A DNA stretch of 64,000 nt from Planctomycetota bacterium (GTDB lineage Bacteria > Planctomycetota > Phycisphaerae > UBA1845): NCBI GenBank assembly GCA_052034525.1, contig JBPOIK010000053.1:22351-86350 (forward strand), in the 5' to 3' direction. Shown in pieces: positions 54,183-61,207 of this stretch; position 1 is the stretch's first letter, and every line of letters starts with the position of its first letter. Both the position numbers and the translations under genes were made by a program. The notes under the pieces were generated by a model that ran no database searches, had not been told where the DNA came from, and worked only from the letters and a program-made list of their open reading frames with translations.

Positions 54183-55187
54183 TTACGACGCGACCGTCGC
54201 CGCCGCCGTCACGATCGTCTTGATCTTCTGCATCGCGGTGATGATGCTCTCCGGCGAGCAGCACGTTACCGGCCGGTCTTTGCAAGCCTCTTGACAGGCT
54301 TCCGAGCACGCGCATTCGGACTTCGCCGACCCGCACTTCGCTTGACCGGCACAGCCCGGCTTGCCCTCGGCGGATGCCGTCTGGGCCTTCAGGTTCTCGG
54401 AACCGCAGCCACACTTGCCTTCACACTTGCCGGCGCACTTGCCTTCACACTTGCCATCGCACTTGCCGGCGCACTTGCCTTCACACGGTCCGGAGCAACC
54501 GGCTTTGCCTTCATGCGATGCCGTCTTGGCCCGGCCAGCGCAATCGGACGCACAACCGGCCTTGCCTTCCGCCGACGCGGTCTGGGCCTTGCCGCATGTG
54601 GACGCGCAGTTGCCGTCGGCCTTCTTGGCCGTGCACGACGCCGAGCAGCCCGCCTGGCCGGTCGCCTTGCCTTCAGCCAGCGCTACCAGCGCATCCGAAA
54701 CCACCTGAGCGGCCTTGTCCGCCTCCTCCTGTGTTTCGAACGTGTAGCCGGCCACGGAGTACTTCAACGCCGCGCCATTGGCCGCCCGGGCCGCCTCGCC
54801 GAAGCTGGCATAGCAATTCTCACCCGCCACATAACGGACGCTTGCCAGCCGGGCCGCCGTGCTCTCCAACTGCTCCACCACGCGGGCGATTGCAGCGTCC
54901 TCGGTCCCGAAGGTCTCCTCGCCGACCGCATAGACGATCGGACTGCCCGTCTCCTGTGACTTCTTCGTCGCCTGCACCCTGCAACGGGTCGTGAAATCGC
55001 CGACGTGGTACGTCAGTCGGGGCAGTTCCTTGACCAGCTTGGTCAAAGCAGCCGGACAGCCGCTGCCATCACAGCCTTGCTTCGTCCCACACGCCGCTTT
55101 CGATCCGCAGTTCGGTCCGGCCTGTACCGCCGACGCCGCAACCGTAAACACCAGCGCCAGCCCAAAAACAAACAAACCCTTTCTCAT
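54183..55187 (-). CDS. Secreted cysteine-rich repeat protein, metallothionein-like.
   Basis: Signal peptide 'VFGLALVFTVAASAVQA'. About 40 Cys, including 'GKCAGKCDGKCEGKCAGKCEGKCGCG' and three spaced 'TASAEGKAGC' repeats. Confidence 0.7.
   Translation of the reverse strand: MRKGLFVFGLALVFTVAASAVQAGPNCGSKAACGTKQGCDGSGCPAALTKLVKELPRLTYHVGDFTTRCRVQATKKSQETGSPIVYAVGEETFGTEDAAIARVVEQLESTAARLASVRYVAGENCYASFGEAARAANGAALKYSVAGYTFETQEEADKAAQVVSDALVALAEGKATGQAGCSASCTAKKADGNCASTCGKAQTASAEGKAGCASDCAGRAKTASHEGKAGCSGPCEGKCAGKCDGKCEGKCAGKCEGKCGCGSENLKAQTASAEGKPGCAGQAKCGSAKSECACSEACQEACKDRPVTCCSPESIITAMQKIKTIVTAAATVAS
54403..54490. repeat. In-frame tandem repeat of about 12 nt (CACTTGCCnnnn)n inside the Cys-rich gene.
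   Basis: cacttgccttcacacttgccggcgcacttgccttcacacttgccatcgcacttgccggcgcacttgcc, which encodes the (GKCx)n repeat. Confidence 0.7.
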
Positions 55188-55487: not shown

Positions 55488-56696
55488 CTACTCGTTCGAG
55501 CCGTGAGGGCTCGAATCCTCCTCCAGGCCCAGCGGATCAAATCCCTGGATCGTAAACGGAGAGGATCGCCAGATTTCGCCGTCGAAATACGGTTCGGTAA
55601 TCGCCTCGCGAAGAGCCGATTCGTCCGTTCGCGCCGGATCGTAGGTGATCCGCACCGGCACGTACCCCGGCCCCGGCCAGGCCTCCACGGAGATGTACCC
55701 GGGAACCTCGTACTCATCATCGCGCTCGACGAAGTACATGAACAGCGATGCCCGGCCACGACACGTCAGGTCGTTCACCCTCAATTCCAGGGTTGCGGTT
55801 TGGGCCGGTTCCTCGCCGCGACCGGCCGCGATCGCCCGGTACGACGGCAGTGGAAAGGCGTACGCGGCGCCGACCGCCGCGGCCAGCGACAGTAGCAGGA
55901 TGCCGATAAGAGCCGCCTGCGGCCACGACCGACCGAGAAACCGGGGAGGCCCCCATGTCAGGGCCCCTTCCTTCTCCCGCGGACAGACCTCGAGGCAGTT
56001 CAGACACGACAGGCACCGGGCGGCCGTCACCTGCTGGACCTTGTCCACTTTGATGCCCGTCGGACACACCTTGGCGCACAACCCGCAATCGATGCAGGCG
56101 TCCGGGTGCCGCCGCACGCGCGTCAGCCCGAGCCGGGAAAGCGGGTGCATTACCGCGGCCATGGGACAGAACCAGCGGCAGAACGGCATCACGATGAACA
56201 GCGATGCAAGCACGATCGCGCCGGCGACGATGTATGCCCAGTATGTGATGTCTTCACCGTGCCGACTGATCAGCGCGTAGCAGGGATCCGCCCGGCGGAA
56301 CTCCAGCTCCGCCGCCGACCACGTGAAATAGAGGATGATTCCCAGCACAACGTATTTCAACACGGCCAGTCCGCGATCCAGCGTATACGGCACGCGAACC
56401 GGACGGATGCCGATTCGCTTCATCCCGGCCTGCAACCATTCCGACATCGCGCCGATGGGGCAGGCGTACCCGCAGAACGCCCGTCGCAACAGGAACGCCG
56501 TCAGCAGCACCGCGCCCAGCACGTAGAGGTTCGACACCCCCAGCGAGCAGAGCATATTCCCTTCACTGATGTAGTTGTAGATCGCCTCCACGCCGCCGAA
56601 CGGGCAGTATGCCTCCGCGTTGCCCTTGACCACAAAGACACCGATCAAGGTCAACGCCACGAAGGCAAACTGCACCAAGCGCCTGGTCCGTTTCAT
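55488..56696 (-). CDS. Polyferredoxin-type membrane protein (NapH/MauN/CcoG-like) with a C-terminal soluble domain.
   Basis: Two membrane-embedded CxxxCP motifs (AYCPFGG and YACPIGA). Two 4Fe-4S ferredoxin motifs (CIDCGLCAKVCP and CLSCLNCLEVCP). The C-terminal ~100 aa carry 'DLTCRGRA'. Confidence 0.8.
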   Translation of the reverse strand: MKRTRRLVQFAFVALTLIGVFVVKGNAEAYCPFGGVEAIYNYISEGNMLCSLGVSNLYVLGAVLLTAFLLRRAFCGYACPIGAMSEWLQAGMKRIGIRPVRVPYTLDRGLAVLKYVVLGIILYFTWSAAELEFRRADPCYALISRHGEDITYWAYIVAGAIVLASLFIVMPFCRWFCPMAAVMHPLSRLGLTRVRRHPDACIDCGLCAKVCPTGIKVDKVQQVTAARCLSCLNCLEVCPREKEGALTWGPPRFLGRSWPQAALIGILLLSLAAAVGAAYAFPLPSYRAIAAGRGEEPAQTATLELRVNDLTCRGRASLFMYFVERDDEYEVPGYISVEAWPGPGYVPVRITYDPARTDESALREAITEPYFDGEIWRSSPFTIQGFDPLGLEEDSSPHGSNE

Positions 56697-56754
56697 GAGA
56701 CTGAGCCCCCCCGAGGAAAACGCGCCTGACTATCCGGCATCGACAGTGTTGGAC

Positions 56755-57695: not shown

Positions 57696-58134
57696 TTTGC
57701 TCTCCTTGGCAAACCACGAAACCGCAGAAGCCGCGATCCGATCGCCCCGAGCCAGCGCCAACGGGGCCCCATGACTCCCCAAAAAAGGCGATCGGACGCT
57801 CATCTGTTTGAACGGCCACCAGCCGTCCTGTCCTGCGGACAGTCTGTGAATCCATGATACCGCCAAACCCGTCCGCAGGTCAGTAGTGCGGGGCCGGTCG
57901 GGAGCACAAGCAATACGCCCCTGGGTCGCTTTACGTTTTGACTGTATTTGCTCGTCTATTGGTGTAAATGGCCCGATGGCTCAACCCCCGGCCGCCGGCA
58001 GAGTGCCGGTGGCCGGGGTCAATTTCGCGCCTCGCAGAGCGGCGAGACGGTTTGCTGCCGGGCCACGGCGCACCCCCGCGCAAAACGGGCGAGCCGCGCC
58101 GCAGCGGCGGCCGGCGATTGATCGCGGCGCTTTG

Positions 58135-59184
58135 CTACTGCGCCGTTATTTCGGCGGCGCGGATGTCTTGAACGCGCATTCCCTCGGGGATTTCAAACAA
58201 CGCTTCGTCGAGCGGCGTGTTGACCTCGGCGCTCAGGAGCCGGGTATCCAGGCGGAAGGTAACCTGCCCCTGATCGTCGTGGCGGCGAACACACGTCTTG
58301 AAAGGCAGCCACACGCCGTTCACACAACGATAGTCTTCGAAGCTCTGGTCCTCCGCGAGTTGCCCGTTGTCATGATACGTTTTCCATTGCTCGATGCGAT
58401 ATCCCCGCTCCGGACGAACGCGAAACCGGAGCACGTCGGCCTTCTTGTCCGTGAACCGGCAATTGACGTCCACGAACGGTCCGTCGGCATCCTTTCCCGA
58501 GCGGGCCACACGGACAAGACGTTCATCCGCGAAGAACCATCCGGGGATGAGACCCAGGGAATGGTGCTCCATATCGGCGTTGAATTGCGGCATCTCGGAG
58601 ATTACGACCAAGCCGTCTTCTTCTTCGGGCATGTGCTTGCACCCATCCAGACTCGTGATGCAGACTCTTGTGCGGCTCAGTGATCTTCGGAACTGCGGCT
58701 CCAGATTGTTGACCGCGAGAAGCGCGTCAACATCACGGCAATCTTCTTCCTCCATGCGTGCCCGCTGACCGGTGAAGTCCAACAGCAAACGACGCCCGAA
58801 TACGGTTGAAGCATTTAGTTCATGCACTCTGGCAAGAGAATCGGCCATGGCCAGGCAGTTGCTCAACGACGCCTCCAGCGAGGTGAGTACCGTTTCACCG
58901 CTGCCCTCTGCGAGTGCTCGCTGTGTGATCTCATCTCTTGCCTGCAGAATTCGTTCCACATGCCTTTCGCGATAGTCCACCACCGGCGTGTAGGTTTCGC
59001 TCACCTCCTGTCGCAGAATTGCGGTCTTGGGGCGTGCCACGTCGGCCTGAGTCTGTCTCCGCAAGTCCTCGGTCCATTTGCTGGTTTCCGATGCCTGCAT
59101 GAGCGACGCGCACGACGCAAGCACCAGCCCCCAGGTCACCACGGTTTCGGCAATGCGACAACTCTTGCTTTCATGCGATTTCAC
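58135..59184 (-). CDS. Secreted hypothetical protein with a C-terminal LolA/RseB-like beta-rich region.
   Basis: GTG at 59184 with GAGGAG 8 nt upstream. The signal peptide 'TVVTWGLVLASCASLMQA' follows the basic n-region KSHESKSCRIAE. No catalytic motif. Confidence 0.5.
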   Translation of the reverse strand: MKSHESKSCRIAETVVTWGLVLASCASLMQASETSKWTEDLRRQTQADVARPKTAILRQEVSETYTPVVDYRERHVERILQARDEITQRALAEGSGETVLTSLEASLSNCLAMADSLARVHELNASTVFGRRLLLDFTGQRARMEEEDCRDVDALLAVNNLEPQFRRSLSRTRVCITSLDGCKHMPEEEDGLVVISEMPQFNADMEHHSLGLIPGWFFADERLVRVARSGKDADGPFVDVNCRFTDKKADVLRFRVRPERGYRIEQWKTYHDNGQLAEDQSFEDYRCVNGVWLPFKTCVRRHDDQGQVTFRLDTRLLSAEVNTPLDEALFEIPEGMRVQDIRAAEITAQ

Positions 59185-59266: not shown

Positions 59267-60592
59267 TCACGGAGCATCTGTTCTCTTCAAACACTCACAT
59301 TTGACAGGCCCCGGTCCTTCAATAATGACTGGCAGCCCGATTGTGCGACAACTGAAGGGTAGGTTCTTGCAGTGTCCCTCGCATCCCCAAGATGAATAGA
59401 TCAGACGCGGCTGTTGCCCAGTTGCCGCGCAAACGAGGTTGTCGGGGCACGCGCCTACGCAGGTCCAGGCGTAAGCGATTCTGTCATCACCCGGGCATAC
59501 GGAAACCCTCAGGCAGCAAGCCGAGGAGATCACGAGAGGGATTGCCGTGAGGGTGCATGCCGGTTGGGTTGTGGGTGGTTTCGGCGCGGGAGGCGGATCC
59601 GCGAATGCCACGAGGCCGTTCGGGTCATAACCCGTTGCGTATTCCGGGATCGTTCCCGCCAGCCGGCTGATCTCGGCCCTGGCGATGGCGCGGGCGTTCG
59701 TGCGAAGCCGGAGAATCTTGAACCCGCGGACCCATGGGCGGGCGACAGTGAAGTCGGCCAACGTGTCCTCGCGAACGGCGGGTGGTACGCTGTGAATGAG
59801 CGTAATGGCATCGGGCGTCGGTTTGTGGAATACGCCCATGTGGTCGCTGTCGTACCAGGGTTTCAGGCCCGGTGCGCTGCGTTCGCGGACCACGAGCCAG
59901 ATGTCACCGTCCTGCACCTTCGCGACGGCGTCTTCAAGTACCTCCACGGGAACATAGGTCTCAGAACGGACGACCCGGTCCGGAAGCGATTCGATCTTCG
60001 TGGCCTTCGCGGCCGCCTTCGCCTGCCCGAGCGGCGTCTCATCCTCACCGAAATCCAGCGTCGCATAGAAGCGTTTCGGGTAGACGACGTGGTCGAACGA
60101 CGTGACGGGCACGCCCAGTTCGGCGGTCACGTCGGAGAGAAGCCAGGCGTTATTGGGCGCCCAGTCGTGGAGCATGAAGAAGTTCCGCTCGAGGAACGTC
60201 GGAACGCCTTCCCGGTGGCGCAAGCGGAGCGTGAGTTTGTAGTGAGCATCCCAGTCCGCTGCGCAGGCCAGAGCAACACACCGCTCCGTAAACGTGACGC
60301 AGTTGCTGGCACTGAGTTGAAAGATGCCTGCCGCTCCATGGAACGGCTGCCCCAGCCCCTGATGCGCGAAGAACGCCACCTCATTGCCGGGGGCTGTCTT
60401 CGTTTGACGTCGTCGATGAAGATCAAGAAACGTCGCGAGTTCGGGGTGAGTCCAGGCACAAATGGGACGCGCGAGTAACACTTGGTAGCTCGCTTCTTCA
60501 GCCGCAGTCAGTCCCCCCCCCCCCCGCGCGGCACCTGCCACTGCGCATAGACCCATCAGCGACAGGGCGACTTGTCTGGCCGTGATGTTCAT
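59267..60592 (-). CDS. Secreted hypothetical protein with a G13 tract in the signal-peptide codons and a Cys-rich C-terminal domain.
   Basis: ATG at 60592. The signal peptide 'ALSLMGLCAVAGAARGGGGLTAAEE' is encoded across the G13 tract. The C-terminal 100 aa carry 14 Cys. Confidence 0.6.
   Translation of the reverse strand: MNITARQVALSLMGLCAVAGAARGGGGLTAAEEASYQVLLARPICAWTHPELATFLDLHRRRQTKTAPGNEVAFFAHQGLGQPFHGAAGIFQLSASNCVTFTERCVALACAADWDAHYKLTLRLRHREGVPTFLERNFFMLHDWAPNNAWLLSDVTAELGVPVTSFDHVVYPKRFYATLDFGEDETPLGQAKAAAKATKIESLPDRVVRSETYVPVEVLEDAVAKVQDGDIWLVVRERSAPGLKPWYDSDHMGVFHKPTPDAITLIHSVPPAVREDTLADFTVARPWVRGFKILRLRTNARAIARAEISRLAGTIPEYATGYDPNGLVAFADPPPAPKPPTTQPACTLTAIPLVISSACCLRVSVCPGDDRIAYAWTCVGACPDNLVCAATGQQPRLIYSSWGCEGHCKNLPFSCRTIGLPVIIEGPGPVKCECLKRTDAP
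60513..60525. repeat. Homopolymeric tract: C13 on the plus strand, G13 in the coding strand.
   Basis: gtcccccccccccccgcgcg, counted directly in the sequence. Confidence 0.9.
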
Positions 60593-61207
60593 GCTGTCAC
60601 ACCTTTTGCAAAGCTGCCTTGAGAACCGGGCCCGGATAAGGCAATTGGCATTTATTAGCACTTTTGGGGGCTCGCGTCAAGCAAAATAAGCCGCAATGCG
60701 ATACGCCCAGTTCTACTTGGGCGGGTTGAAGATGCAGGGCAAGCGTTGAGCGTAACACTTTGTGTAGCATAGCGTTGCGCGTCATTTTGCTGCCTGCCGC
60801 GTTGTTGACTGGCGGGGGATGTCGTCGGGCGTCCGGGCACCGCTCGGAGGTGCTCAAGAGAACGGGCGCGGCGGGAGAATGGAAGGCATCCCACGGGTTT
60901 AGCCGGGGGCGGCGGGAACCCAAGCGCACGAGCGGGACGCGGGCAAAAGCTGCAAACAGGAGGGCTCCACGGTGCTTCGCGCCAAAGCCGAGTGGGAAAT
61001 ACTTGCTCGACGTGGATTGGTGGTTTAAGATCGGCCCGGCGCGGAGTCAATCACGATCAAGTGTCGCCGCGCGCCGGCCGGACGCCGCCCCCGTGGCCGG
61101 CGGTTGCGGAAGGGTGAGGGGGCGGAAGCCGTCTGGTTTTCTCAGGCAGAACGTGCCGCCTCCGGCGTTCGGCGGATCAAAGCGGCATCGTTCCGGGACA
61201 CAGGCTC

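Follow-up and report, generated by a model that had tools for sequence, protein, structure and literature searches.

The window analysed here is a stretch of 64,000 nt from a Planctomycetota bacterium (contig JBPOIK010000053.1, assembly GCA_052034525.1). Its minus strand contains a gene for a predicted secreted amidase of 441 amino acids, in which the codons at the end of the signal peptide include an uninterrupted run of 13 G. The features of this gene are the following.

59267–60592, minus strand: open reading frame of 441 amino acids for a secreted AmiA-like amidase (DUF1460, NlpC/P60-type) that carries a Cys-rich extension at its C-terminus; the stop codon is included in the end at 59267.
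60600–60605, minus strand: Shine-Dalgarno-like AAGGTG, 7 nt upstream of the ATG start codon at 60592–60590.
60500–60592, minus strand: signal-peptide coding region, residues 1 to about 22–31, deduced from hydropathy, the -3/-1 rule and the N-terminus of orthologues.
60513–60525, minus strand: G13 homopolymer (C13 on the plus strand), which codes for R23 to G27; proposed slippage tract.
59819–60322, minus strand: AmiA-like catalytic domain PF07313, residues 91–258 (Pfam match).
59270–59557, minus strand: C-terminal Cys-rich region, residues 346–441, with 12 Cys and without a Pfam match.

The 13-nt G run that a first-pass annotation of the window had reported at 60513–60525 is real. Read directly on the minus strand, the frame across the tract is GCC GCG CGG GGG GGG GGG GGA CTG, which corresponds to A-A-R-G-G-G-G-L at residues 21–28. 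In a homopolymer census of the 64 kb, the second-longest G/C run had a length of 7 and the longest run of another base was A8; the statement that the window lacks a comparable tract was thus borne out. Under a model of independent and identically distributed (iid) bases, about 11 G/C runs of at least 8 nt are expected in the window, and one was observed. For G/C runs of exactly 6 nt, base composition predicts about 72, and 13 were counted. Because the observed numbers are far below expectation, we conclude that the source genome is depleted of homopolymers and that G13 is a clear local outlier. Per 64 kb, 0.04 (iid) or 0.01 (first-order Markov model) G/C runs of at least 13 nt are expected. 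The tract had been called exceptional even in DNA with a GC content of 68%. Exceptional it is, whereas the GC content amounts to 65.5% in the window and to 61–63% around the amidase gene. Homopolymers longer than 10 nt are rare across bacteria in general. At the scale of a genome, rarity alone is not overwhelming, because under the same crude iid and Markov models about 1–3 G/C runs of at least 13 nt may occur by chance in 5 Mb; the position and the behaviour of the tract weigh more than its mere rarity. In 18 kinds of related loci, which comprise about 100 kb of DNA from other Planctomycetota, G/C runs of at least 8 nt were found only at the same codon position. A scan for simple-sequence repeats yielded no second repeat of the phase-variation type within the window. 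With its location at codons 23–27 of 441, the G13 run has the length and position typical of contingency loci, namely an uninterrupted G/C repeat of at least about 8–9 nt that is in frame and near the 5' end.

The first-pass annotation had described the gene product merely as a secreted Cys-rich protein and had not recognised the AmiA-like/DUF1460 family, to which both the Pfam match and the fold assign it. PF07313 (AmiA-like, formerly DUF1460) matched with an E-value of 1.6e-13 and 51 bits, compared to a cutoff of 27, and a profile built from homologues matched the solved DUF1460 structures 2p1g, 2im9 and 4h4j in the PDB. The core of an AlphaFold model has values of 70–90 in the predicted local distance difference test (pLDDT); residues 1–25 and 314–441 are unreliable. 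Comparing the model with the PDB by means of Foldseek gave only one significant match, which was AmiA from Bacteroides uniformis (4q5k; E 2.7e-7, template modelling score 0.64 on the target). The modelled core thus has the papain-like fold of AmiA. A putative Cys-His-His triad is formed by C98, H251 and H267: C98 and H251 are invariant in seven homologues, and H267, which is part of the motif LIHS and aligned to the 2p1g motif, is kept in six of the seven. DUF1460 amidases use a triad of this composition (PMC10318531), and the passages cited from PMC4600125 and PMC10318531 describe the family as NlpC/P60-type cysteine amidases that act on anhydro-muropeptides in cell-wall recycling. The protein is accordingly a member of the AmiA-like/DUF1460 amidases; its N-acetylmuramoyl-L-alanine amidase activity on (anhydro)muropeptides is putative. 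The same product of 441 amino acids has been called in public assemblies. Compared to its orthologues, the gene has a ratio of non-synonymous to synonymous substitution rates (dN/dS) of 0.19–0.37, which reflects purifying selection and argues for a functional gene. The Cys-rich tail of about 95 residues occurs only in the three closest orthologues, and its pLDDT is below 50; it may represent a new disulfide-rich binding domain.

Two observations speak for the ATG at 60592 as start codon: the AAGGTG upstream of it and the MN(I/S)T that is conserved at the beginning of the orthologues, which carry GGAGGAG at the same distance. The N-terminus reads MNITARQVALSLMGLCAVAGAA-RGGGG-LTAA-EE, is conserved among orthologues and contains the parts of a Sec-type signal peptide as recognised by signal peptidase I (SPase I): a charged n-region (MNITAR), an h-region that follows R6 and extends from V8 to A22 with a Kyte-Doolittle hydropathy of about 2, and small residues at positions -3 and -1. 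Several sites between residues 19 and 31 conform to the -3/-1 rule; candidates are cleavage after AGA (before A), after GAA (before R) and after TAA (before EE). As the signal peptide was judged by hydropathy and the -3/-1 rule, each of these cleavage sites is a candidate. The sequence R-G-G-G-G had been placed within the signal peptide; the residues are as stated, and their location can be refined to the boundary of c-region and cleavage site, outside the hydrophobic core. The tract is thus predicted to encode the c-region or the first residues of the mature protein, where changes in length should be tolerated. An interpretation of C16 as the cysteine of a lipoprotein was rejected, as residue -1 is Leu or Val and there is no lipobox.

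The effect of the tract on the reading frame was deduced by in silico translation of alleles with lengths of 7–19. Only lengths of 3n+1 yield the full protein, which then has 439–443 amino acids and 2–6 glycines. All lengths of 3n and 3n+2 give products of 26–32 amino acids with a stop 1–5 codons past the tract, in agreement with the previous claim that a change in length truncates the protein just after the start. A change in repeat number consequently shifts the frame and abolishes the full product in silico, as is characteristic of contingency loci. Three codons are relevant in this context.

60508–60510, minus strand: TGA stop in alleles of length 3n (..G GAC TGA), which terminates a peptide of 26–29 amino acids according to in silico translation.
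60498–60500, minus strand: TGA stop in alleles of length 3n+2 (ACT GAC TGC GGC TGA), which terminates a peptide of 29–32 amino acids according to in silico translation.
60546–60548, minus strand: alternative ATG that shares the frame of the mature protein in 3n alleles only and is used by gene callers.

Contigs that carry the locus were gathered through the amidase protein and four neighbouring genes. This yielded six data sets from essentially the same organism, in which alleles that encode the full protein are designated ON and all others OFF.

Window: G13, ON; reference.
ENA ERZ22666022 (L003, DTU Copenhagen sewage): G13, ON; 1 single-nucleotide polymorphism (SNP) in 8,734 bp.
Logan ERR7015089 (L004): G15, OFF; 0 SNPs in 8,734 bp, the tract length being the sole difference.
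Logan ERR12982444 (L031): G18, OFF; no further change in the gene, and 2 SNPs outside it in 4,742 bp.
Logan ERR12510701 (L032): at least 14 G; one contig breaks off inside the tract, and the following one begins 200 nt farther along.
JGI 3300000506 (Soeholt, L005): G16 with a 35-nt deletion behind it, which would be OFF if genuine; a second event of net -32 nt is present on the contig.

The comparison of related genomes, which had been proposed as a check of the switch, thus gave tract lengths of G13, G13, G15, G18, at least 14, and a suspect G16. If the JGI contig is left aside, the tract is altered in three of four comparisons, compared to 3 SNPs and 0 other indels in about 27 kb, and all other runs of 5–7 nt in the compared region (18 of 18) are unchanged. 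The rest of the amidase gene is intact in the out-of-frame alleles G15 and G18. ON and OFF lengths accordingly occur among close relatives with conserved flanks, as judged from assembly consensus sequences of mixed technologies. On this basis, a true polymorphism of tract length appears highly probable. The 90% cluster of the amidase protein consists of four sequences with 441, 441, 427 and 370 amino acids, which differ because gene callers have to cope with different tract lengths. For the G15 and G18 contigs, the gene callers start the product at the ATG at 60548 (MRSGRCRAGGGGG...), so that it lacks the signal peptide; use of this start by cells is hypothetical.

The G15 data set ERR7015089 was obtained by PacBio HiFi sequencing of an anaerobic digester in Fredericia. 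ERR12510732, the accession of which is close to ERR12510701, is part of the European sewage series PRJEB68319 (NovaSeq 6000). Because of this proximity and because ERZ22666022 is labelled as DTU Copenhagen sewage, ERR12510701 and ERZ22666022 presumably belong to the same Illumina series. Look-ups via the four neighbouring genes led to the same six data sets and no further alleles. A scan of JGI metagenome contigs and GTDB genomes by protein alignment gave orthologues of at most 67% identity and no more copies from the same species. Ten predicted variant proteins with tract lengths of 10–22 had 0 matches in an exact look-up in a protein collection; this result is uninformative, because the real G18 product (contig ERR12982444_473880) is also absent from that collection. 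Cluster membership lists under-report alleles that are present in the contig index.

The Soeholt allele was dropped as evidence because of the second net -32-nt event beside a G run. On this contig (region L005 7560–7700), 32 nt that are present in all other assemblies are missing (window positions 56718–56749), at a distance of 5 nt from a G7 at 56706–56712. This G7 is located 11 nt upstream of the ATG of a gene for a 4Fe-4S protein of 402 amino acids (55488–56696, minus strand). As both events amount to net -32 nt and both lie beside G runs, they are probably assembler artefacts tied to such runs. A separate observation concerns the sole SNP that distinguishes L003 from the window in 8.7 kb. 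It is located at position 4095 of L003 (window about 60497), changes GAA to GTA (E32V) and, 14–15 nt past the end of the tract, falls in the predicted cleavage region; the variant protein P0009 is encoded on two contigs.

According to the first-pass annotation, absence of the tract from orthologues of an otherwise conserved protein would speak against a switch. Instead, orthologues with 61–67% protein identity and the same Cys-rich tail possess, at the same codon, a G7 or G10 that is in frame and uninterrupted. L001 contains G7 (GTG GGG GGG CTC) and L006, which originates from an independent JGI sample, is identical to it over 1.8 kb; L002 contains G10 (ATG GGG GGG GGG CTT). L001 and L002 are contigs from one ENA assembly (ERZ27248201) with 92.6% nucleotide identity, and over 1,053 nt they differ by no indel other than the additional GGG. 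Homologues with at most 44% identity lack the tract. In all three lineages (G7, G10 and G13), the glycines of the tract are encoded by GGG, except for the terminal GGA in the window. GGG accounts for 18% of the Gly codons, and in the window, codon usage is mixed in the five other Gly runs. The number of substitutions per synonymous site (dS) between the window lineage and the orthologues is 1.2–1.5, i.e. saturated. As a GGG-only run has been kept at this distance, the tract is an inherited feature of the clade, which has been lengthened from 7 via 10 to 13 and is stable in length when short. The identity of G7 in two independent samples fits an instability that rises with length. T9 runs located about 100 nt upstream of the starts of two distant DUF1460 homologues, L017 (2072–2080) and L018 (2831–2839), were considered as well; they were read not as switches but as likely terminator T-tracts of the preceding genes.

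Taken as a whole, the data lead us to favour, with some confidence, the interpretation that G13 is a slipped-strand ON/OFF translational phase-variation switch, i.e. a contingency locus, of the secreted amidase. Slipped-strand mispairing during replication would alter the length of the G run. In alleles of length 3n+1 (7, 10, 13, 16...), translation from the ATG at 60592 would read through into the pre-protein of 441 amino acids, and added Gs would merely lengthen the glycine stretch at the end of the signal peptide. In alleles of length 3n or 3n+2, an early TGA would leave a peptide of 26–32 amino acids and no exported amidase. The downstream gene for a lipoprotein-like protein of 349 amino acids may be co-transcribed with the amidase gene, so that the OFF state could also lower its expression by polarity. 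Slippage is presumably the cause of the changes in length, and the tract would be expected to switch reversibly and at the high rate typical of contingency loci, about 10^-2 to 10^-5 per generation. A selective benefit might consist in escape from phages or other antagonists or in the saved cost of a secreted enzyme. Comparative length variation is an accepted first-line criterion for the prediction of phase-variable loci. Of the original switch claim, the tract, its effect on the frame and the length polymorphism have held up, and ON/OFF switching at the level of a population is suggested by alleles of assemblies only. The sole hint of length heterogeneity within a population is the contig from ERR12510701 that ends inside the tract. 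Whether G7 (stable), G10 and G13–18 (variable) represent a contingency locus that originated, in a free-living planctomycete, from a Gly-Gly motif is, in our estimate, an evenly balanced question.

A number of points weigh against a switch, and some of them would also be explained if the tract had a fixed length (e.g. 13) everywhere and if 15, 16, 18 and at least 14 were homopolymer errors of reads or of k-mer assemblers. Every allele is an assembly consensus sequence. The technologies differ, with PacBio HiFi for G15 (ERR7015089) and NovaSeq for sewage. Homopolymers of at least 10 nt are a recognised weak point of sequencing. One Logan contig breaks at the tract, and the JGI allele, with two net -32-nt events beside G runs on its contig, is probably an assembler artefact. 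Moreover, the sample of the window could be equal to one of the other samples; the 0 SNPs between the window and L004 might mean that one sample was read by different methods. However, the deviations of +2 and +5 are expansions and exceed the usual plus-or-minus-1, which makes technical noise less likely. In L004 and L031, the tract is enclosed by the correct unique sequence at either end, L031 is set apart as a distinct population by two SNPs of its own, two assemblies concur on G13, and the shorter runs in the compared region agree without exception. In addition, the difference between G7 and G10 in the orthologues is short enough to be trusted, so that the length of this site does evolve. 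A purely technical origin of the length differences is therefore improbable in our judgement. Independently of sequencing quality, the finding that G15 and G18 occur without any other change in the gene is a weak test, as the genomes are almost identical anyway. The window contains a single tract of this type and hence no sign of a wider set of phase-variable genes, a full-text literature search gave no precedent of repeat-mediated phase variation in Planctomycetota, and the adaptive value of hypermutability is supposed rather than observed.

The tract might also be hypermutable and yet not act as a switch. It would then be a poly-Gly spacer that has grown by slippage of GGG from 2 via 3 to 4 Gly and constitutes a mutational hazard, and the out-of-frame alleles would be ordinary neutral or mildly deleterious losses in a dispensable gene. 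This explanation accounts well for the fact that between lineages only in-frame steps of three (G7, G10, G13) were fixed, and slippage alone can keep an existing run pure and extend it. It is also in line with the lack of another phase-variable-type tract in 64 kb and with the more distant homologues, which manage without the tract, and a benefit of the OFF state is not known. We nevertheless consider it rather unlikely: a deleterious allele would not be expected to form the consensus of two or more separate data sets from a near-clonal population, as OFF does here, and the amidase gene is under purifying selection. Furthermore, the G13 tract was lengthened in a genome that otherwise purges homopolymers, and its 5' position with immediate stops in both wrong frames suits a switch. 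A three-state switch of localisation is far less plausible still. Alleles of length 3n+1 would give the exported amidase, and the other lengths a signal-less, full-length cytoplasmic enzyme, which would start at the ATG at 60548 in 3n alleles and at a GTG 9 nt before the tract in 3n+2 alleles; the hypermutable run would shift a peptidoglycan-recycling amidase between compartments, comparable to AmiD-like and AmpD-like activities. Open frames with start codons do exist in all three registers and are used by gene callers, but in GC-rich DNA such frames occur by chance. The alternative starts lack a Shine-Dalgarno-like sequence, orthologues do not share the alternative ATG, and a tail with 12 Cys is unlikely to fold in the cytoplasm.

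The slipped-strand switch that we favour most closely resembles known systems in which G/C homopolymers control exported proteins. In pilC of Neisseria gonorrhoeae and Neisseria meningitidis, a poly-G run in the signal-peptide codons near the 5' end determines the ON/OFF state of an exported protein; the passages cited from PMC2193922 and PMC5953494 (citing Jonsson et al. 1991) give G9–G20 in the signal-peptide region and switching of 10^-2 to 10^-4. The range of G9–20 brackets the lengths of 13–18 found here, and in both cases the length varies between closely related genomes. In contrast to the planctomycete, Neisseria is adapted to humans, belongs to the beta-proteobacteria and has dozens of such loci, and PilC is a pilus-associated adhesin and not an amidase. 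Its switching was measured experimentally, whereas the locus in the window is known from assembly-level polymorphism alone. Chlamydia, which also belongs to the Planctomycetes-Verrucomicrobia-Chlamydiae (PVC) superphylum, has variable G/C tracts (13–24) in genes of exported or surface proteins; frameshifted and intact poly-G alleles of pmpG are intermixed among close relatives and have been read as phase variation (PMC6740158). However, chlamydiae are obligate intracellular pathogens with AT-rich genomes, and their tracts are located mid-gene in paralogues of an autotransporter adhesin without homology to the amidase. The G/C contingency loci of Campylobacter jejuni (PMC8355987, PMC3025981) likewise consist of intragenic G/C homopolymers with reversible frameshifts, but they number about 30 and have shorter tracts (G8–G13). 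For the 7C tract in glpK of Mycobacterium tuberculosis, the passages cited from PMC11868660 describe a reversible frameshift mechanism that operates in a high-GC genome, too. Both of the latter species are cultured and their switching was measured; it affects surface glycans, flagella and metabolism, not a peptidoglycan amidase. With respect to the enzyme, the closest characterised relative is AmiA from B. uniformis (4H4J/4Q5K; Xu et al. 2014 via PMC4600125 and PMC10318531), which, as far as the cited passages describe it, shares PF07313, the NlpC/P60 papain-like fold, the Cys-His-His triad and a periplasmic or exported location. The identity in the structural comparison is only 18%, and the amidase from the window possesses an additional N-terminal helical part of about 60 residues and the Cys-rich tail of about 95 residues. 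AmiA from B. uniformis is not known as phase variable, and the substrate of the window amidase is putative.

The mechanism is textbook knowledge; the setting is new, as it combines an uncultured, high-GC, free-living planctomycete from wastewater with a DUF1460 amidase. To our knowledge, nearly all known cases of phase variation driven by repeats come from pathogens and commensals adapted to a host. A convincing case would carry bet-hedging by means of repeats into free-living bacteria of the environment, and into a phylum for which the literature search found no such locus. There is also a practical aspect: a hypervariable homopolymer leads to discordant gene calls (441, 427, 428 and 370 amino acids) and to contig breaks in metagenome assemblies, and such alleles could be misread by annotators as pseudogenes or errors of sequencing. 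For the Danish digester and sewage communities in question, deep Illumina, HiFi and Nanopore data already exist, from which the distributions of tract length can be read.

Downstream of the amidase gene lies the lipoprotein-like gene mentioned above.

58135–59184, minus strand: gene of 349 amino acids with the lipobox-like N-terminus LVLASC, 82 nt past the stop codon of the amidase and without a Pfam match.

The orthologous locus, too, has this gene beside the amidase (48% identity to the neighbour in L001). In L001 and L006, paralogues of the 349-amino-acid protein also flank the amidase upstream and further downstream (82–83% nucleotide identity), and the protein appears to represent a small gene family tied to the amidase. 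On the other side, an intergenic region of 615 nt (60593–61207), which is long for a bacterial spacer, separates the amidase gene from the divergent DUF1559/prepilin-type gene. This neighbour and the names of homologous metagenome-assembled genomes point to Planctomycetota, probably Phycisphaerae, as the source of the DNA. Between positions 58000 and 62500, 0 matches to Rfam families were obtained, and a scan for sigma-70 promoters and terminators near the amidase gene gave nothing above shuffled expectation; the 615-nt spacer likewise lacks a sigma-70-like promoter and an Rfam match. A role of the G run in RNA structure was dropped from consideration, as the 5' mRNA folds less stably than shuffled sequences (z +2.4).

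A further repeat was noted in the gene of a signal-peptide protein of 334 amino acids (54183–55187, minus strand). The C-terminal part of this protein stems from a 12-nt/36-nt tandem repeat at 54410–54497, which is in frame and encodes (C-x-G-K)n, for example CEGKCAGKCDGKCEGKCAGKCEGKC. A change in its copy number would vary a Cys-rich, possibly metal-binding, stretch.

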